Shown here piece after piece: positions 38,685 to 48,235 of a stretch of DNA of 64,000 nucleotides. A program made the position numbers and the translations under genes. A model generated the notes under the pieces. The model saw nothing but the letters and a program-made list of their open reading frames with translations. It made no database searches and had not been told where the DNA came from. How positions within the stretch are numbered: the first letter of the stretch is position 1; every line of letters starts with the position of its first letter. This DNA is from a virus (lineage: Duplodnaviria > Heunggongvirae > Uroviricota > Caudoviricetes): the IMG/VR virus record IMGVR_UViG_3300045988_009865, positions 24,263 through 88,262 of that record; one strand, given 5' to 3'.

Positions 38685-39566
38685 ATGAAAACATCTATCC
38701 GTGTTATAATTCATTCACCGACAAAAGGGTCTCATGAAGAAGAGTTTAACATCATCCAGTTCCCTTCTGGTGAGATTGGTGGACACTTTTCACAAGAGCT
38801 TGTTGACTTTACTGCTCACGCAGCATCATCCATCAACAATGTGATTATGATTGTAAAAGGCTATGATAAAGACACATTGTTTGCTGTGGCACTTGCTAAA
38901 GAAGCAATTGATGATTTAGTTCCTCATGAATATGCCTTAAAGACTGTCATCTTTTACTACTTACCAAATGCACGATATGACCGTCACATGTTTAAAGGTG
39001 ATGCAGCAGCTTTGAAGGTTTTTGCTAAACAGGTTAATGCAATGGGGTTTGGTGCGGTCTGTGCAGTTGACCCTCACAGTTATGTGCCAGATAACCTGTT
39101 TAACTGCTTCCAAAGTATTCCTCAAAATGAAATTGCAGTCCACTATGCAAATGACCCACTGGTTGATTACTTAGTAGCCCCAGATGCAGGTGCTTCTAAG
39201 AAGATTGCAGAGTCTGCTAAAGAGGTGGATAAACCATATATCACAATGTCTAAAGTACGTAACCTTAAGACTGGTGAAATTACTGGTATGCGAATCCTTG
39301 ATGATGTTGATTTGACAGATAAAACTGTTATGATTCTGGATGATATCTGTGATGGTGGTCGAACCTTCATAGAAGCAGCTAAACATCTTCGTGAAGCAGG
39401 TGCAAAACGTGTAGAACTCTATGTAACACATGGTATCTTTTCTAAAGGTGTTGAAAACCTTCTTGACAATGGTATTGACCACATCTACACTACAAACTCT
39501 TTAGGAGAAGCTAAAGACCGTGGCTTAACACATTATGGTCAAGTTACTGTAGCAAACCTTGATTAA
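38685..39566 (+). CDS. ribose-phosphate pyrophosphokinase-like protein (PRPP synthetase family; candidate ADPR-PP synthetase)
   Basis: 293 aa; phosphoribosyl-binding loop MILDDICDGGRTF; adjacent to NAMPT-like gene. Confidence 0.75.
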   Translation: MKTSIRVIIHSPTKGSHEEEFNIIQFPSGEIGGHFSQELVDFTAHAASSINNVIMIVKGYDKDTLFAVALAKEAIDDLVPHEYALKTVIFYYLPNARYDRHMFKGDAAALKVFAKQVNAMGFGAVCAVDPHSYVPDNLFNCFQSIPQNEIAVHYANDPLVDYLVAPDAGASKKIAESAKEVDKPYITMSKVRNLKTGEITGMRILDDVDLTDKTVMILDDICDGGRTFIEAAKHLREAGAKRVELYVTHGIFSKGVENLLDNGIDHIYTTNSLGEAKDRGLTHYGQVTVANLD

Positions 39567-39611: not shown

Positions 39612-41393
39612 ATGACTAAATCACTTTATGCAGTCCCAGCAGGTTTAAAAGCAGATGCTTACAAATCTGGTCACATTTACCAGTACCCTAGTGCAACAGA
39701 ATACTTGATGTTCAACCTGACACCACGTAGTGATAAGTGGTTTAACAGCCCTTTAGCCATTGACGGTGTAGTGGCTTTTGGTATCCAACGTTTTGTTAAA
39801 GATTATTTAATAGACCACTGGAATGCCACCTTCTTTGAACGTGACAAAAAAGAAGCAATTGACGAAATCTTAGAAGTCATGAACGGTGTTCTGGGTAAAG
39901 ATGCTATTGGTCGAGAACATTGGGAAGCACTCCACGACTTAGGTTATCTACCGGTTGAAGTATACGCTGTAGAAGAAGGCACAGTTGTCCCTATGCGTGT
40001 ACCAATGATTGTCTTCCAGAACACTGTCTCAGGTTTCCATTGGGTAGCGGGGTATCTGGAAGATGCTTTCTCTGCTGAGATTTGGAAGGCTTGTACCATT
40101 GCAACTATTGCATTGCACTACAAACGTATTTGTAAGAAGTGGTCTGACCTTACTTGTGACAATGACTTACATTTGCCTTATCAGTGCCATGACTTTGCTA
40201 TGCGTGGTATGTCTGGCTTTACTGATGACGCATTTAATGCTGTAGGTCACTTAACCAGCTTTAAAGGGACTGATAGCTTCCCTGCTGTATACACGGCTAA
40301 ACGAATCTATGGACAGTCCTACCCAATCTCTGATATTGGTAGTTCTGTACCAGCCACTGAACACTCTGTAATGTGTGCAAACATTGCTTGGGAAGGTGGC
40401 AATGAGTTGATTGAAGAAGAAAGACGTTTTAAAGGTGAGTTACAAACCTTCCGTCGTTTCTTAACAGAAACTTACCCAACTGGTATTGCAAGTGTTGTTT
40501 CAGATACTTATAACTTCTGGAGAACTGTATCAGTTATATTACCAGAACTCCGTAAAGAGATTATGGAACGTGATGGCAAACTGGTAATTCGTCCTGACTC
40601 TGGAGACCCTGTACATATTGTCACAGGTTATAAAGCAATCCACTTAGAGTGTGCTAAAAAGGCTTATTACGAACACCTAAGCAAGCTGGAAGCCAGCGAC
40701 ACAATGTTGAATGCTGTTCTGAACATGAAGCTTGAAAACATCAACTATGGTATTGCTGGATGGCTACTGTCAGAAGGATACGAGATGGTTGTTGACAGAG
40801 AAGACTTTGAAGTTGCTGATACAGTGATGTTGAAAAACGCTTATATGGTTGGTTCTGCAAACGTTGTAACACGTCCTGTAGCAGAGATTGATGGGGCTAT
40901 TAAGACCTTGTATAACATCTTTGGAGGGACTATCAACTCTAAAGGTTTTAAGGTACTGGATGAACACATTGGCCTTATTTATGGTGACTCTATCACGTTG
41001 GAACGTGCAAACGAAATCCTGAAGCGTTTGTATGAAATGGGTTTTGCAAGCTCTAACGTAGTGTTTGGTGTGGGTTCTTACACTTACCAGTACATGACTC
41101 GTGATACCTTTGCATTTGCTGTCAAAGCAACTCTTGCAAGCATTGGTGGTAAAGAGATTATGCTTGCAAAAGACCCTAAAACAGATAGTGGTGTTAAGAA
41201 GTCTGCTTTTGGTGGTGTAGCACCTATGTGGGATGGTGATAATCTGAAAGCTGTAGATGGCTATGGATTCCAGAGCTTTGCAGATGTGCTAGAGCATCCA
41301 GCTTGCGCTTTACGTTTAGTCTTTAGCGACTCTGAGCAGTTCGGTTACACAACTCTTGGTGATATTCGAAATAATATTGACAAGCAGCTTTAA
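39612..41393 (+). CDS. nicotinamide phosphoribosyltransferase-family protein (NAMPT/NadV-like; candidate Namat)
   Basis: 593 aa; N-terminal DAYKSGHIYQYP matches the NAMPT DSYK..H..QYP signature. Confidence 0.75.
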   Translation: MTKSLYAVPAGLKADAYKSGHIYQYPSATEYLMFNLTPRSDKWFNSPLAIDGVVAFGIQRFVKDYLIDHWNATFFERDKKEAIDEILEVMNGVLGKDAIGREHWEALHDLGYLPVEVYAVEEGTVVPMRVPMIVFQNTVSGFHWVAGYLEDAFSAEIWKACTIATIALHYKRICKKWSDLTCDNDLHLPYQCHDFAMRGMSGFTDDAFNAVGHLTSFKGTDSFPAVYTAKRIYGQSYPISDIGSSVPATEHSVMCANIAWEGGNELIEEERRFKGELQTFRRFLTETYPTGIASVVSDTYNFWRTVSVILPELRKEIMERDGKLVIRPDSGDPVHIVTGYKAIHLECAKKAYYEHLSKLEASDTMLNAVLNMKLENINYGIAGWLLSEGYEMVVDREDFEVADTVMLKNAYMVGSANVVTRPVAEIDGAIKTLYNIFGGTINSKGFKVLDEHIGLIYGDSITLERANEILKRLYEMGFASSNVVFGVGSYTYQYMTRDTFAFAVKATLASIGGKEIMLAKDPKTDSGVKKSAFGGVAPMWDGDNLKAVDGYGFQSFADVLEHPACALRLVFSDSEQFGYTTLGDIRNNIDKQL

Positions 41394-41408
41394 AAGTATA
41401 TGATAAGA

Positions 41409-41429
41409 GGCTCCTACGGGAGCCTTTTT
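41409..41429 (+). terminator. intrinsic terminator
   Basis: ggctcc-tacg-ggagcc hairpin then ttttt. Confidence 0.7.
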
Positions 41430-41446: not shown

Positions 41447-41791
41447 ATGGACAACCTTTCCATATGGTTTAACAAGAAACCTGTACAACCGAAATACTTA
41501 CAAGTTGCCTACACAGACATCCTTGAAGTTCTCGGTAAAGAAAAGTTTGAAAAGTTTTGTGAAGGTATCTACAATCACCACTGCCAATTTGCTACAAAAG
41601 AAGGTATGTTTGTCATAGAACAGTTCTTTGGCAGAGACCCAGATGATTATGAAGAGATTAGCTTTGTAATGAAATACATGATAGAGTATATTGAAAATCG
41701 TGGATTCGAAGTTAATCCTGAATTTTATGAGCATGAGGGTGTACCTTTAGCAAAAGGTTTTGATGGCATACTCGTTAACTGGACTTGGTGA
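41447..41791 (+). CDS. hypothetical protein
   Basis: 114 aa; RBS ggagaa upstream. Confidence 0.4.
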   Translation: MDNLSIWFNKKPVQPKYLQVAYTDILEVLGKEKFEKFCEGIYNHHCQFATKEGMFVIEQFFGRDPDDYEEISFVMKYMIEYIENRGFEVNPEFYEHEGVPLAKGFDGILVNWTW

Positions 41792-42132
41792 AAATTATGA
41801 AAATCAAAGAGATGAACATCAACATTGTCTTAGAAGAACGTTGGGAGAACATCAAGAAGCCTGAGAATGGTCATAAGTTCCTCAACAAAATCTTAGTAGC
41901 AGCTAAAGAAGAACTGACTGGCAAGGTTGCAGCGGCAATCACAATAAAGGTCTGTGTAAAAGGTCTTCCAGACAATCACCAATTTGCACTTGACGAGTTC
42001 AAAGAGAGCTTCTACAATCCAAACAAACAGATGCTTGAAAGTAACTTTGCAGTATCTACAAGTATCGTCCATGACAGAAGCTTTATCCTTTACAAGAATA
42101 TGAGAGGTGAGTCATGCAAGCATATTGGATAG
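41785..42132 (+). CDS. hypothetical protein
   Basis: 115 aa. Confidence 0.35.
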   Translation: MVKIMKIKEMNINIVLEERWENIKKPENGHKFLNKILVAAKEELTGKVAAAITIKVCVKGLPDNHQFALDEFKESFYNPNKQMLESNFAVSTSIVHDRSFILYKNMRGESCKHIG

Positions 42133-42290
42133 AAATTTTACTGTCACTTGGTAGTGTAGCAGTATTTGTTTACCTTCTTTGCAAGTACTATGCAGAACAC
42201 AAAAAATGTGACTTCTGTAATGGAGAGGGTTATACAAGAGCAGGTTGCTGCCCTATGTGTGGTGGTTCTGGTAAAATGTTTAATAAGTAA
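42114..42290 (+). CDS. membrane-anchored micro-protein with two CxxCxGxG (DnaJ-type) zinc-finger motifs (58 aa, not in ORF track)
   Basis: ATG 42114 after gaggtga RBS; hydrophobic ILLSLGSVAVFVYLL then CDFCNGEG and CPMCGGSG. Confidence 0.4.
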   Translation: MQAYWIEILLSLGSVAVFVYLLCKYYAEHKKCDFCNGEGYTRAGCCPMCGGSGKMFNK

Positions 42291-42318
42291 TTTAACAGTA
42301 AACTAAGAGGAAAGTATT

Positions 42319-44685
42319 ATGCGCATGGTAAACGACCACGCAGAAGTGATTAAGAGTTCAACTTCTTTAGAGACGTCTCAAGCACAGATTACAATGACAC
42401 CTGAAATGTTCAGCCTTTTGAGTTCTGGTGTATATACCTTTAAAGAAAGGGCAGTTATTCGTGAACTGTCATGTAACGCAGTAGATGCTCAGAAAGAAGC
42501 TGGAAAAGAGAACATCCCGTTCCATGTGCATTTACCTACTCGTTTTGAGCCTTACTTTGAAGTTCGTGATTTTGGAACTGGATTGACTCATGATAAAGTT
42601 ATGAGTTTGTATCTAAATTACGGGGCTTCTACGAAGAATGACTCTAATGACTACATTGGTGCAATGGGTATCGGCTCAAAATCCCCATTTGCAATTGCTC
42701 AGTCATTCACAGTATCTAGCTATGTTGATGGTGTTGTCAATAAGTACTCTGTTTACCTTGAGAATGGTATTCCTCAAGTAACTAAGCTTACCACTAACCC
42801 AACAAAAGAGCCTAATGGTTTAGCTGTACGTGTAGCAGTTGCTGACCACCGTATCTCAAAGTTCTTTGAAGAAGCTGGACATGTATATTCATACTTTGCT
42901 GTAAAACCAGAAAGTAATATCGAGTACGACGATGTATTAGCAGATATGAATGTTATTGCCCGTGAAGAAGGTGTTTATGATGCCATGATTCATAAGCAAA
43001 GCTGGCGTTCTAGTGGTAACAGGACAGAGTTTAATGTGGTGATGGGTAATATCGCCTATCCAGTTAACATGGAAGCATTACTTGGTGATGATTTCTTCAA
43101 AGTCTTGCCAGAGTTTTTCCGTAGGAGCGTAGACCTTGTAAACATCTACATGCCTATTGGTTCAGTTGCTATTGCAGCTTCTCGTGAAGCATTGCAGATG
43201 AATGATACGACAAAAAATGTTATCATCGAGGCTACTAAAAAGATAACTGAAGCAATTACAAAGGATGTTATCAAGAAAGTTAATAGCCAACCTACACTCA
43301 TGGATGCTGCACAGGCTTATGCTGAGTTACGTTTAAACTCACGAGAGATGTTTAATGCTGTGTGTCCAAAGCTAGAGTGGGGTGGTGTTAAGCTTGATTC
43401 TCTGGAAGAAGAATTACTAAACATTCGTCGTGGAATTATCTACGCAGAAGACGGCTCAGTCATTTACGAGCGTGACGGTAAAGGTAATATTAAGGTTGAT
43501 AGGAACGGGAACAATATCCCTAAAGTAGATTATCTTTATGACCCAGTTGCTTATGTCAAGTTCAACTCTTTAGAGAGTAAGATTCGTGCAACATCGCTTT
43601 CCTACACTCAAGAGGCAAGTATGTTCAATATCTTCGGAGCAATGCGTAAAAGTCAAATTGAACAGTTTTTGTTTGTCATAAATGACCGTCGCAATAAAAA
43701 CGGTACTGAGAAGACTGTAGGACGCAATCAAATCTTGCGTGGTGCATGTCGAGACTATGCCAGTGAGTCGAGTATGTTTCACAGATACAATGGTATTGTC
43801 TTTGTATTCTCGACTGAAAAAGAGTTAGACAACCTAATCAATCTACACAAACTTGATAAAAGCTTGTTAAAGATTGTAAAGATGTCTGATAAGGAGCACC
43901 ATTATCAGCGTAAAGAAGCTGTAAGAGGTGTTGTAAAACTCTGGAAAGCCGTTCCAGCAGAAGGTGTAGCTTCATACAAAGAGGTGTCAGAAGACTTAGA
44001 TACGATTGAAGAGCCTCAGCTTTATATTAAGGCAGTAGGCGACACAGTTGATGGTGAATGTTTTTGCTCATCTCCAGAAGATGTAGCTAAGTCAGTTGCC
44101 AATGTCATTGGAAAGACAGTCTATGTTTTCCGAAAAGCAAATTGGAAAAAGATACCAGAAGACTGGATTGAAGTAGATGAGAAGCTCTTGAACGACAGCT
44201 TAACTGATGTTCACTGGATTAACCATAACAGGTATATGACACGTATCTATATGAATGGTGTCCTTGACCTTACAAGCAGTTGGATTATTGCCAGAAACTT
44301 TACGTTCAATAACAGGAAGATTTCTCGTGGTTATTGTTATTCACGAGATACAAACAAAACTATCTTCTTAGAAGGTAATGAAGATGCTGTTGAGGCAATG
44401 TTTGGTAAAATCCAATACGTTGCTGCACCGTTTGCATACACTTACACTGTTAGCAGGTTGCAAACTTTGAAAGAATGTCTTGACAACGATACAAAGCTGT
44501 ACAAGAAAATCAAGAAAGCGGGTGACCGTATGGTCATTAAGGTGACAAACTATCTTTCAAAAAGAAAACAAGAAAACTTCTTGCTTTCTCATTTAGATTG
44601 GAATAAAGTGTCACCCATCGAAGTGAGTAAGTTCTTAGGCTTTGATGTAAAGTGTGTTCCAGAAGGGACTACAATTTACGATTAA
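42319..44685 (+). CDS. rIIA: rIIA-like protein (GHKL ATPase N-terminal domain)
   Basis: 788 aa; VIRELSCNAVDA, DFGTGL, GAMGIGSKSPF boxes as recalled from T4 rIIA; no TOPRIM motif. Confidence 0.7.
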   Translation: MRMVNDHAEVIKSSTSLETSQAQITMTPEMFSLLSSGVYTFKERAVIRELSCNAVDAQKEAGKENIPFHVHLPTRFEPYFEVRDFGTGLTHDKVMSLYLNYGASTKNDSNDYIGAMGIGSKSPFAIAQSFTVSSYVDGVVNKYSVYLENGIPQVTKLTTNPTKEPNGLAVRVAVADHRISKFFEEAGHVYSYFAVKPESNIEYDDVLADMNVIAREEGVYDAMIHKQSWRSSGNRTEFNVVMGNIAYPVNMEALLGDDFFKVLPEFFRRSVDLVNIYMPIGSVAIAASREALQMNDTTKNVIIEATKKITEAITKDVIKKVNSQPTLMDAAQAYAELRLNSREMFNAVCPKLEWGGVKLDSLEEELLNIRRGIIYAEDGSVIYERDGKGNIKVDRNGNNIPKVDYLYDPVAYVKFNSLESKIRATSLSYTQEASMFNIFGAMRKSQIEQFLFVINDRRNKNGTEKTVGRNQILRGACRDYASESSMFHRYNGIVFVFSTEKELDNLINLHKLDKSLLKIVKMSDKEHHYQRKEAVRGVVKLWKAVPAEGVASYKEVSEDLDTIEEPQLYIKAVGDTVDGECFCSSPEDVAKSVANVIGKTVYVFRKANWKKIPEDWIEVDEKLLNDSLTDVHWINHNRYMTRIYMNGVLDLTSSWIIARNFTFNNRKISRGYCYSRDTNKTIFLEGNEDAVEAMFGKIQYVAAPFAYTYTVSRLQTLKECLDNDTKLYKKIKKAGDRMVIKVTNYLSKRKQENFLLSHLDWNKVSPIEVSKFLGFDVKCVPEGTTIYD

Positions 44686-47724: not shown

Positions 47725-48072
47725 ATGGCATTTAAAGAGTTCTGCCAAGCTACTTTCATAATTGTTTTCTTAGTTGGGGCAGGTGTCTGGGGAGGATACT
47801 CTTACAGAGATTATCAAGTTGCTGAAGCTGAGCTAAATAATGAGAAACTAATAAGTGTTGCTAAAGATGCTTATCAGGAAGGTTTAGCCACACTCAGCAC
47901 CAATTACAAAAATGATTTGAAAGATGTGCTTGCTAAGAATAAGCACACAAAAGAGGTACTAACATATGAAAAAACTAAGCCAGAGTTTTATAATGTTTGT
48001 GTTACTGATAATTATGTCAGGGTGTTCAACGAACAAAGTGAACAGTACATTCAAAAACTCCCAAGTAAGTGA
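47725..48072 (+). CDS. putative inner-membrane spanin (Rz-like)
   Basis: 115 aa; N-terminal TM helix FIIVFLVGAGVWGG then coiled-coil-like region. Confidence 0.5.
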   Translation: MAFKEFCQATFIIVFLVGAGVWGGYSYRDYQVAEAELNNEKLISVAKDAYQEGLATLSTNYKNDLKDVLAKNKHTKEVLTYEKTKPEFYNVCVTDNYVRVFNEQSEQYIQKLPSK

Positions 48073-48235
48073 GAGTGACAAGTACACTCAAGAAGAATCA
48101 CGGTATATCATTAAAGGTAATACTGGCAGTGATGTGGCAGCAGCCCTTGAGTTTTATCGTGATGGTTTTTACCAGTGCACAATCAAAGCTAATAACCTTA
48201 TTGATATGATTTTATTAGGAAACAAACAGCAATGA
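47966..48235 (+). CDS. putative outer-membrane spanin lipoprotein (Rz1-like), overlapping the Rz-like gene out of frame
   Basis: 89 aa; lipobox MSGC in MKKLSQSFIMFVLLIIMSGC; strong RBS aagaggt inside the upstream ORF. Confidence 0.55.
   Translation: MKKLSQSFIMFVLLIIMSGCSTNKVNSTFKNSQVSESDKYTQEESRYIIKGNTGSDVAAALEFYRDGFYQCTIKANNLIDMILLGNKQQ

Follow-up and report, generated by a model that had tools for sequence, protein, structure and literature searches.

A small membrane protein gene with a predicted zinc knuckle lies directly upstream of rIIA in Ounavirinae phages

The 58-aa protein encoded directly upstream of rIIA in the window (the whole stretch of DNA that was analysed, 64,000 nucleotides) is the orthologue of Felix O1 gp131, and we read it with moderate confidence as the product of an accessory gene coupled to gp130, an N-out/C-in membrane protein whose predicted Zn(Cys)4 knuckle would serve as a tethered protein-binding module. 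Work as such a tethered module is the most likely role; the knuckle would bind a protein of the host or of the phage at the cytoplasmic membrane face, sequester it or recruit it, by analogy with the binding of TRAP by anti-TRAP and of FtsH5 by the plant protein FIP. The gene itself is already known, being annotated in related phages and designated gp131 in the type phage Felix O1. The initial annotation had called it unannotated, which held for the ORF track that it worked from but not for related records, most of which annotate the orthologous CDS (it was uncalled in 12 of 60 records sampled). At present the observation correctly recovers a hypothetical gene that had already been annotated, and it would matter only with a function found.

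The gene and its distribution

The features of the locus are collected in Table 1. The product of 42114..42290 on the + strand, 58 aa in length, is MQAYWIEILLSLGSVAVFVYLLCKYYAEHKKCDFCNGEGYTRAGCCPMCGGSGKMFNK; AGCCPMCGGSGK is a peptide of this product. The reading frame and the ribosome-binding site gaggtga proposed in the initial annotation were both recovered, with the start codon, the stop codon and the spacing given in the table.

Table 1. Coordinates of the 58-aa gene, its sequence features and its neighbours in the window
Feature	Position	Strand	Evidence or remark
Upstream gene, gp130 orthologue (phrog_4262, 111 aa from ATG)	41797..42132	+	phrog_4262 E 1.9e-68
Shine-Dalgarno site GAGGTGA	42104..42110	+	3 nt 5' of ATG
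CDS of 58-aa protein, Felix O1 gp131 orthologue (phrog_3931)	42114..42290	+	ATG 42114, TAA ends 42290
19-nt overlap with 3' end of gp130 orthologue	42114..42132	+	
Single predicted transmembrane helix, about residues 5-23	42126..42182	+	Kyte-Doolittle, AlphaFold2
First CxxCxGxG motif, CDFCNGEG (C32, C35)	42207..42230	+	
Second motif with extra cysteine, C-CPMCGGSG (C45, C46, C49)	42246..42272	+	
rIIA (phrog_612)	42319..44685	+	E 6.7e-189; 28 nt 3' of 58-aa CDS

In 34 orthologous loci, drawn from three genera, a purine-rich Shine-Dalgarno sequence (GAGAGGTGA or GGAGA) stood in this position. Among 21 Felixounavirus alleles the dN/dS ratio in the 42114 frame was 0.076, compared with 2.0 and 0.89 in the remaining two forward frames, and codon position 3 held 30 of the 43 variable sites. 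The comparison of these alleles shows 42114..42290 to be a real gene with a reading frame under purifying selection. Conservation of the ORF and of its cysteines in relatives had been named beforehand among the checks to be made, and the ligand cysteines were indeed invariant or nearly so. The reading of a chance ORF has next to no likelihood and is already refuted by the conservation pattern: the ORF is short, under common ORF-calling cut-offs, and uncalled in the records mentioned above, but the dN/dS ratio, the positional orthologues in four genera (45-54% identity, or recognisable by motif alone), the conserved Shine-Dalgarno site and first-order Markov shuffles, which held a mean of 0.21 single CxxCxGxG motifs and the motif pair in 0 of 200, all stand against it.

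The ratio of 2.0 belongs to the frame of an alternative ORF at 42166..42306, which was for this reason not accepted as coding. Frameshifted alleles of the gene were also seen (P0003-P0007), and the two that were aligned proved to be single-base changes in homopolymer length, G4 to G3 in phiWec177 and A6 to A7 in NJ12; judging from these two, homopolymer errors in sequencing are a more likely explanation than natural gene loss.

The protein matched phrog_3931 over its full length (E 2.4e-33; its residues 1-58 aligned with positions 1-59 of the 59 in the profile), and a full-length match was obtained by tblastn in 257 phage records. Felix O1 gp131 (Felix01p243, NP_945023), which is annotated as 'CHP, membrane protein, 1 TMD', is likewise 58 aa long, 95-100% identical within Felixounavirus, likewise the last gene before rIIA and likewise overlapping gp130, with no material difference. 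An exhaustive phmmer search of 1.84 billion representatives, together with two word-indexed searches, revealed a narrow family; its clusters, about 13 in number, derive without exception from Ounavirinae, from Krischvirus or from matching metagenomic contigs. The remaining matches shared the generic motif only. The distant homologue in Krischvirus (JSE, RB49), EpJSE_00047, is a 52-aa protein with the same layout of transmembrane helix and CxxCxGxG-x5-CCxxCxGxGK, in which E7, S11 and all cysteines align with the 58-aa protein; its linker from helix to knuckle is shorter (2 residues), and its gene sits after nrdH and before 55.2, not beside rIIA. A PADLOC search with the 58-aa ORF gave no match. 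Searches of the literature for a gp131-type protein yielded neither transcriptomics nor proteomics of infected cells, and no toxicity screen or study of function; gp131 was not seen in the Felix O1 virion proteome.

Cysteine motifs and the predicted knuckle

The two motifs first noted, CDFCNGEG and CPMCGGSG, are present and are the sole CxxCxGxG motifs in all six frames of the window, the second motif proper occupying 42249-42272. From Felixounavirus to Krischvirus JSE the residues C32, C35, G37, G44, C45, C46, C49, G51, G53, K54, E7 and S11 were invariant, and among the Ounavirinae and Krischvirus members aligned G39 was invariant except in SUSP1 (G39D), so that the protein carries the two adjacent CxxCxGxG motifs with invariant cysteines and glycines that are expected of a knuckle. 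One metagenomic variant (P0027) has proline in place of C45, which is therefore no obligatory ligand. The four cysteines C32, C35, C46 and C49 would bind one Zn2+ to give a beta-hairpin knuckle of the DnaJ-CRD or anti-TRAP type, and since the knuckle begins 2-9 residues past the helix it would be held against the inner leaflet.

The top PDB fold matches were the Bacillus anti-TRAP (RtpA) structures 3ld0, 3lcz and 2bx9 (rmsd 1.1-1.3 Å over 29 residues, probability 0.89-0.98), the best of them with rmsd 1.1 Å over 29 residues, 34% identity, probability 0.98 and an E-value of 0.3; these matches rest on a model of moderate confidence (pLDDT 73) and have Foldseek E-values of 0.3-1 because the domain is tiny. 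Anti-TRAP is a protein of about 53 residues which likewise has two adjacent CxxCxGxG motifs; they bind a single zinc, and the knuckle is used to bind another protein, the specific regulatory protein TRAP and not a chaperone. Neither of the two proteins has a J domain, each being a module that stands alone. Anti-TRAP, however, is a soluble protein that forms trimers by way of a C-terminal helix, whereas the 58-aa protein has an N-terminal transmembrane helix and, in the model, none after the knuckle. Its score against the NCBIfam RtpA model (NF058604) was 10.5 bits for a cut-off of 65, and it is therefore no member of the RtpA family.

The same layout of hydrophobic anchor and C4 finger, with two CXXCXGXG motifs and no J domain, is found in plant thylakoid membrane proteins with a DnaJ-like zinc finger such as Arabidopsis FIP (At5g02160), the finger of which faces the stroma, the equivalent of the cytoplasm, and which binds the membrane protease FtsH5 (PMC5915565). 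FIP differs in being eukaryotic and in having a transit peptide; the likeness is architectural only, and no sequence homology between FIP and the 58-aa protein was detected in any search.

Small zinc-knuckle proteins are common in phage genomes, with 184 BFVD fold matches at E<=10. None of the matches listed bears an experimentally based name, and one worked example would therefore help to annotate many.

Gene neighbourhood and relation to rIIA

The position directly upstream of rIIA was as the initial annotation had placed it. The same 19-nt overlap with gp130 was present in 34 of 34 loci of Felixounavirus, Mooglevirus and Suspvirus, which likewise kept the short gap to rIIA, and was lacking in the Kolesnikvirus phage Omen. 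This arrangement suggests translational coupling to gp130. A scan between 42290 and 42319 found no terminator-like site, and the protein would be made by coupling to gp130 on one transcript with rIIA and rIIB. For the gp130 orthologue we obtained no match in Pfam, NCBIfam, PADLOC or PDB sequences, and its low-confidence AlphaFold2 model (pLDDT 69.5) gave only weak matches to an IF3 C-terminal-domain-like fold, with E about 0.1. RT-PCR of Felix O1 placed the maximum expression of genes 127-130, and likewise that of gene 1 (rIIA), at 25 min (PMC3185647).

The gene order was conserved as NAMPT, one or two small ORFs, the 58-aa gene, rIIA and rIIB, with Prs and NAMPT upstream and rIIA/rIIB downstream. 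Adjacency to rIIA was observed in all four Ounavirinae genera, the gene being present in 24 of 24 Ounavirinae rIIA loci with upstream DNA, and reached as far as Kolesnikvirus (Omen_111), the rIIA of which is 35% identical. When 68 rIIA loci were scanned on the rIIA strand, linkage of zinc-knuckle ORFs to rIIA held in Ounavirinae only; among 38 loci from outside the Ounavirinae none had a TM-anchored version next to rIIA, and a single soluble ORF with two motifs near rIIA (locus L080) is about what background would give. As the adjacency is limited to one subfamily, it may be inherited synteny and not functional coupling. T4 rIIA.1, which lies directly upstream of T4 rIIA, was considered as a counterpart and rejected, having no transmembrane helix and no cysteines and being unrelated.

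A CRISPRi-ART screen rated the knock-down of AVU07_agp080, the orthologue in SUSP1, as 'Not Fit' (mean 1.05, 7 guides; PMC11879866, supplement 16), the mean lying between the values for the adjoining genes (about 0) and for rIIA (1.83). The gene would therefore be dispensable in a permissive laboratory host, which fits an accessory role in host takeover or counter-defence, possibly together with the membrane-associated rII module. A more specific proposal, which we hold to be rather improbable, is that the Ounavirinae rII module has in this protein a third component dedicated to it, which could anchor RIIA/RIIB at the membrane or regulate them against membrane-acting abortive infection of the Rex type, or else that the protein inhibits an inner-membrane machine of the host, for example FtsH, as it could by analogy with plant FIP. 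If true in either form, this proposal would establish a functional class for the many small zinc-knuckle membrane proteins of phages that are called 'DnaJ-like'. The persistence of the adjacency to an rIIA of such low identity and the intermediate SUSP1 score could be counted in favour of this proposal. The rII genes are among the oldest unsolved genes of phages, and a conserved membrane partner encoded directly upstream across a subfamily would give a new handle on the action of RIIA/RIIB at the membrane.

Lysis and redox functions

In 2010, gp131 was listed with gp79, gp116, gp118 and gp119 as one of five possible holins of Felix O1 (PMC3185647); it is small, with one transmembrane helix and a lysine-rich C-terminus, and according to the CRISPRi-ART authors the Ounavirinae are still without an identified holin (PMC11879866). 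The protein does have the at least one transmembrane helix and the charged C-terminus looked for in a holin (6 positive and 3 negative charges in the C-terminal domain), and the gene adjoins rIIA, a 'lysis inhibitor', with the spanin genes (47725-48235) 5.4 kb downstream. We nevertheless regard it as unlikely that the protein is the holin still missing from Felix O1-like phages, as proposed by Whichard et al. (2010), or a different membrane protein that times their lysis. No holin family was matched in PHROGs or Pfam; the endolysin (Felix O1 gp35) is not adjacent, and the gene does not stand in a lysis cassette but is flanked by gp130 and rIIA, its adjoining genes being middle and not late. 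The homologue in JSE and RB49 belongs to T4-type phages, which have their own holin t, and an invariant cytoplasmic Zn(Cys)4 knuckle is not a feature of any holin class known to us. The 'Not Fit' result for SUSP1 also counts against a holin, but weakly, because among lysis genes only rIIA scored Fit or Semi-Fit in that screen.

Just as unlikely, in our estimate, is that the cysteines are redox-active and not purely structural, the protein acting as a membrane thiol-disulfide oxidoreductase or redox sensor. The five conserved C-terminal cysteines include the non-ligand C45, and Omen carries extra ones (SCCKHC, GCVCPFC); moreover, in Krischvirus the gene of the homologue overlaps with the 3' end of nrdH, a glutaredoxin-like gene, and an oxidoreductase activity is reported for the DnaJ zinc finger (PMC8262869). 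The replacement of C45 in P0027 and the absence of nrdH linkage from Ounavirinae speak against such an activity, no thioredoxin fold is present, and the points in its favour are purely circumstantial.

Membrane topology

The predicted N-terminal transmembrane helix of the initial annotation was borne out by a Kyte-Doolittle 19-residue maximum of 2.11 (residues 5-23) and by the AlphaFold2 model (pLDDT 73), in which a helix at residues 3-28 is followed by the beta knuckle. The N-tail is free of K or R in 10 of 10 family members, K or R follows straight after the helix in 9 of 10 (K24 in the 58-aa protein), and E7 and S11 in the helix region are conserved. An N-terminal MQxYWxE is conserved as well, which may in part stem from the overlap with the C-terminus of gp130; Omen, which has no such overlap, has a different N-terminus. 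The protein would be a bitopic inner-membrane protein, N-out/C-in, with a 5-residue periplasmic N-tail, one transmembrane helix and a C-terminal domain of about 30 residues on the cytoplasmic side. Zinc thiolate sites require the reducing cytoplasm.

Among the orthologues from Mooglevirus and Suspvirus the stretch of 10 residues past the helix is net acidic, and the positive-inside argument is therefore weaker there. This acidic flank would favour the reverse orientation, with a periplasmic C-terminus and disulfide-bonded cysteines, as in a small exclusion or immunity protein like T4 Imm or Sp, and superinfection exclusion is often mediated by small membrane proteins in virulent myoviruses. 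We consider it very unlikely, given the distribution of K and R about the helix across the family and the strictly conserved CxxCxGxG spacing and glycines, which fit a zinc knuckle.

Relation to DnaJ

The motif had been described at the outset as DnaJ-type, and as a similarity this stands: CxxCxGxG is common to both proteins, and the family profile matched the DnaJ/Hsp40 cysteine-rich domain (PF00684; 1exk) at a profile-to-sequence E of 2.5e-4 and that of DNAJA3 (2ctt) at 2e-3. As an assignment to DnaJ it does not. DnaJ has four repeats, two interleaved zinc centres, a J domain, a G/F region and C-terminal domains, whereas the 58-aa protein has two repeats and nothing else, and its scores were under the cut-offs (PF00684, 14.9 bits for a cut-off of 32.7; TIGR02349, 17 bits for 377). 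With two of the four repeats it would have one zinc centre, not two. The J domain is the part of DnaJ which engages DnaK; no match to PF00226, the J domain with its HPD motif, was found in the 58-aa protein, of which residues 1-28 form a hydrophobic helix. By its sequence, the 58-aa protein is no DnaJ.

The suggested interaction with host chaperone or protein-folding machinery found no support in these results. That the protein engages the host DnaK/DnaJ system or is itself a chaperone appears to us even a little less likely than the reversed topology. Beyond the motif-level similarity to the cysteine-rich domain, this idea can draw on plant DnaJ-like zinc-finger proteins without a J domain, for which Hsp70-independent holdase activity has been reported (PMC5915565). 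Against it, a J domain, an HPD motif, a G/F region and substrate-binding domains are all absent from the 58 residues, which leave room for one zinc centre only; every DnaJ model was far under threshold; the nearest fold, anti-TRAP, is no chaperone; and the motif also occurs in unrelated contexts, for example in HNH-linked repeat proteins (P0011-P0018). The GenBank labels of orthologues include 'DnaJ-like, contains cysteine-rich domain' and 'chaperone protein', the latter in phage Omen, while the orthologue of phage Mushroom is labelled 'heat shock protein, DnaJ-like'. The labels 'heat shock protein' and 'chaperone protein' are propagating on motif similarity alone, and the DnaJ membership test given here lends them no support.

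A conserved short gene upstream of rIIA

The window belongs to a Felix O1-like myovirus of the genus Felixounavirus. Across the 3.3 kb around the 58-aa ORF it shares 96.7% identity with Escherichia phage EF202P1, and 177 phage records matched at least 80% of the length of this region. The ORF, its Shine-Dalgarno sequence, a hydrophobic segment (residues 5-23, Kyte-Doolittle mean 2.11) and two CxxCxGxG motifs were all present as the initial annotation had described them, and the adjacency to rIIA was confirmed (phrog_612, E 6.7e-189). This motif pair is the only occurrence of CxxCxGxG in all six frames of the 64-kb window; in first-order Markov shuffles (n = 200) the mean for a single motif was 0.21 and a pair was found in 0/200.

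Features around the gp131 ORF in the window
Feature	Position	Strand	Remark
Ribose-phosphate pyrophosphokinase (phrog_619)	38685-39566		adjoins NAMPT
Nicotinamide phosphoribosyltransferase, NAMPT (phrog_448)	39612-41393		upstream of gp131 ORF
Terminator-like hairpin	41405-41428		after NAMPT
First small ORF	41447-41791		after hairpin
Second small ORF, gp130 orthologue (phrog_4262)	41797-42132	+	111 aa; end overlaps first 19 nt of gp131 ORF (42114-42132)
Shine-Dalgarno GAGGTGA	3 nt 5' of gp131 ATG	+	sequence reading
Third small ORF, gp131 ORF	42114-42290	+	ATG to TAA, 58 aa, MQAYWIEILLSLGSVAVFVYLLCKYYAEHKKCDFCNGEGYTRAGCCPMCGGSGKMFNK
rIIA, then rIIB			rIIA 28 nt downstream of gp131 ORF
Rz-like i-spanin (phrog_1152)	47725-48072	+	same strand as gp131 ORF
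o-spanin-like ORF	47966-48235	+	same strand as gp131 ORF; overlaps i-spanin

The translated ORF matched the family phrog_3931 over its whole length (E 2.4e-33), and tblastn gave full-length matches in 257 phage records. Pooled Nei-Gojobori analysis of 21 distinct Felixounavirus alleles gave a dN/dS of 0.076 in this frame and of 2.0 and 0.89 in the remaining two forward frames, with 30 of the 43 variable sites at codon position 3. Conservation of the frame was borne out, as was that of the motif cysteines, which are kept in relatives, and the ORF is a real gene.

The gene is not new. It corresponds to Felix O1 gp131, listed in 2010 as 'CHP, membrane protein (1 TMD), 58 aa, pI 8.0', with EpJSE_00047 of phage JSE as its sole outside homologue at that time (PMC3185647). 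Its description as unannotated must be withdrawn, since the CDS is annotated in the type phage and in most relatives, usually as 'hypothetical protein' or 'membrane protein' in GenBank. No CDS was called over it in 12 of 60 sampled records, which matches its absence from the size-limited ORF track, presumably for the same reason. Phage Mushroom carries the label 'heat shock protein; DnaJ-like, contains cysteine-rich domain' and phage Omen 'chaperone protein', so annotators had already noted the DnaJ-like motif and preceded the DnaJ/chaperone interpretation.

Gene neighbourhood and orthologues

The ribose-phosphate pyrophosphokinase and NAMPT pair resembles the NAD+ reconstitution pathway with which phages overcome defences that deplete NAD. 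In Felix O1 an HNH endonuclease (gp128) lies between the two, whereas the window contains no ORF of such size there. A terminator scan found no terminator-like site between the gp131 ORF and rIIA, which is followed by rIIB, polynucleotide kinase and the spanins. The spanin ORFs lie 5.4 kb downstream of the gp131 ORF, away from any endolysin. The gp130 orthologue gave no family or fold lead to function. Felix O1 genes 127-130 and gene 1 (rIIA) reach peak expression at 25 min ('middle' class) and the late morphogenesis genes at 60 min (PMC3185647).

Mooglevirus (Michonne, KPS64) and Suspvirus (SUSP1, SUSP2, PC79-13) have orthologues of 45-54% identity at the corresponding position. The ATG, a purine-rich Shine-Dalgarno, the 19-nt overlap (identical in length) and the short gap to rIIA were all retained in 34 loci from these genera and Felixounavirus. 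In Erwinia phage Omen of Kolesnikvirus, the fourth genus of the Ounavirinae, whose rIIA is only 35% identical to that of the window, the gene directly 5' of rIIA has the same design (54 aa, MDVHTGLNILLVLVIVGGLLAAKYRVDSCCKHCDGTGVKDGCVCPFCQGTGEDD) and lies 10 nt from the gp130-slot gene without overlap; it was missed by tblastn because sequence similarity was too low. Protein 117 of phiEa21-4 was also a fold match. The family itself is small: clustering at 90% identity gives about 13 clusters, every one of them from Ounavirinae, Krischvirus (JSE, RB49) or metagenomic contigs that match these. Among 68 IMG/VR rIIA loci scanned, the gene was present in all 24 Ounavirinae loci with upstream DNA, and a TM-anchored version beside rIIA in 0 of 38 loci of other lineages. 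One of these 38, a metagenomic phage contig with 38% rIIA identity (L080), has an ORF for a soluble 118-aa protein (1700-2056) about 450 nt 5' of rIIA, with the two motifs CPDCKGHG and CETCNGIG; this single case is close to the background rate.

A predicted zinc knuckle shared with DnaJ and anti-TRAP

Residues invariant in Felixounavirus, Mooglevirus and Suspvirus are M1, Q2, Y4, W5, E7, S11, G13, L21, L22 and K24 in the N-terminal half and C32, C35, G37, G39 (SUSP1 excepted), G44, C45, C46, P47, C49, G51, G53 and K54 in the C-terminal half; when Krischvirus is added, E7, S11, C32, C35, G37, G44, C45, C46, C49, G51, G53 and K54 remain. Since C23 is not conserved and C45 is replaced by proline in the metagenomic variant P0027, C32, C35, C46 and C49 are the predicted zinc ligands. 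SUSP1 AVU07_agp080 (L037, 1643-1822) carries G39D in the first motif (CEGSD vs CEGSG); the remaining aligned orthologues keep Gly.

An AlphaFold2 model built on a 7-sequence alignment gave a helix over residues 3-28 and, after it, a small beta knuckle (mean pLDDT 73). The first Foldseek matches in the PDB were to Bacillus anti-TRAP (3ld0, 3lcz, 2bx9; rmsd 1.1-1.3 A over 29 residues, 28-34% identity, probability 0.89-0.98); DnaJ cysteine-rich domains ranked after these. The tiny size of the domain kept the E-values of these matches at 0.3-1.3. The family profile matched the DnaJ cysteine-rich domain 1exk (E 2.5e-4), DNAJA3 2ctt (2e-3) and anti-TRAP (0.29), so the proposed DnaJ-type motif similarity is sound. 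The chaperone or protein-folding role drawn from it fails on family membership: gp131 has no J domain, G/F region or C-terminal substrate-binding domain, carries two repeats where DnaJ has four, and scored 14.9 bits against PF00684 (gathering threshold 32.7) and 17 bits against TIGR02349 (threshold 377). It reached 10.5 bits against the anti-TRAP equivalog (threshold 65). Gp131 would share a zinc-knuckle module with DnaJ and anti-TRAP but is a member of neither family. An exhaustive phmmer search found CxxCxGxG in many unrelated settings, including HNH-linked proteins with 4-7 repeats (P0011-P0018) and further small TM-anchored proteins (P0020, P0021, P0023), and BFVD returned 184 weak fold matches to small phage proteins, nearly all uncharacterised.

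Membrane topology

In 10/10 family members examined the N-tail contained no K or R and had one acidic residue at or adjoining the helix start, while K or R directly followed the helix in 9/10. Zinc thiolate sites require a reducing compartment. Together these features point to an N-out/C-in topology, like that of Pf3 coat protein, and leave less support for the inverted, periplasmic arrangement; the argument has less force for the proteins of Mooglevirus and Suspvirus, in which the C-flank is net acidic. The helix and knuckle are only 2-9 residues apart in the 10 members, so that the knuckle would have to sit against the inner leaflet and any partner would have to be close to the membrane. E7 and S11 are separated by one helical turn, and their conservation as far as Krischvirus suggests that the helix does more than anchor the protein. 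Part of this conservation may, however, stem from gp130, whose C-terminus in Ounavirinae is specified by the first seven codons of gp131 in a different frame.

Proposed function

The best-supported reading of the analysis is that gp131 is a membrane-tethered protein-binding module, in which a single transmembrane helix would hold one Zn(Cys)4 knuckle on the cytoplasmic side of the membrane, for binding, sequestering or recruiting a host or phage protein. Two precedents are anti-TRAP, which binds TRAP through the same kind of knuckle, and Arabidopsis FIP, whose architecture is that of gp131 (an anchor and two CXXCXGXG repeats without a J domain) and whose partner is the membrane protease FtsH5 (PMC5915565).

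Literature searches yielded no evidence of translation and no study of gp131 function; the only functional data found came from a transcriptome-wide CRISPRi-ART screen of SUSP1, in which AVU07_agp080 (annotated as phrog_3931, Felix01p243) was 'Not Fit' (mean 1.05, 7 guides), the genes upstream scored about -0.6 to 0.1 and rIIA (agp081) was 'Semi-Fit' (1.83, one guide) (PMC11879866, supplements 1, 8 and 16). By this single screen the phage needs the gene little or not at all on a permissive laboratory host, although the SUSP1 copy may be atypical given G39D. A holin function, for which gp131 was named in 2010 alongside gp79, gp116, gp118 and gp119 (PMC3185647), has less support than the binding module; the authors of the screen regarded the Ounavirinae holin as still unidentified, and lysis genes other than rIIA did not score (PMC11879866). 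A redox role is likewise less supported, as is a chaperone role. In Krischvirus (L036 1676-2093, JSE; L039 21-447) the homologue begins within the 3' end of the gene before it, which the JSE annotation names nrdH (glutaredoxin), and the cysteine-rich knuckle gene is apparently coupled there to a thiol-redox gene.

For the membrane-tethered module, an accessory role in host takeover or counter-defence would agree with its dispensability and with its location, which has the NAD-salvage genes on one side and the anti-Rex rII genes on the other. The persistence of the adjacency where rIIA has diverged to 35% identity makes a specific link to rII attractive, but this link is not established, since the TM-anchored gene was absent beside rIIA in the 38 loci from outside Ounavirinae, the Krischvirus homologue follows nrdH rather than adjoining rIIA, and T4 rIIA.1, considered as a counterpart, is unrelated. 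The finding would gain modestly in importance if gp131 proved to be an rII-module partner or to inhibit a membrane machine of the host.

Anomalous database records

In a few frameshifted entries (P0003-P0007; L042, phiWec177; L043, NJ12) the TM helix is joined to a +1-frame peptide (...QEQVVALCVVVLVKCLISNLTVN). The two alleles aligned differ by single-base homopolymer changes (G4 to G3 in phiWec177, A6 to A7 in NJ12); these are probably sequencing errors. GU169904.1 (Staphylococcus phage SA1) and MG065664.1 (Campylobacter phage A132) contain this Felix O1-type region with 97% protein identity and are probably chimeric or contaminated records.
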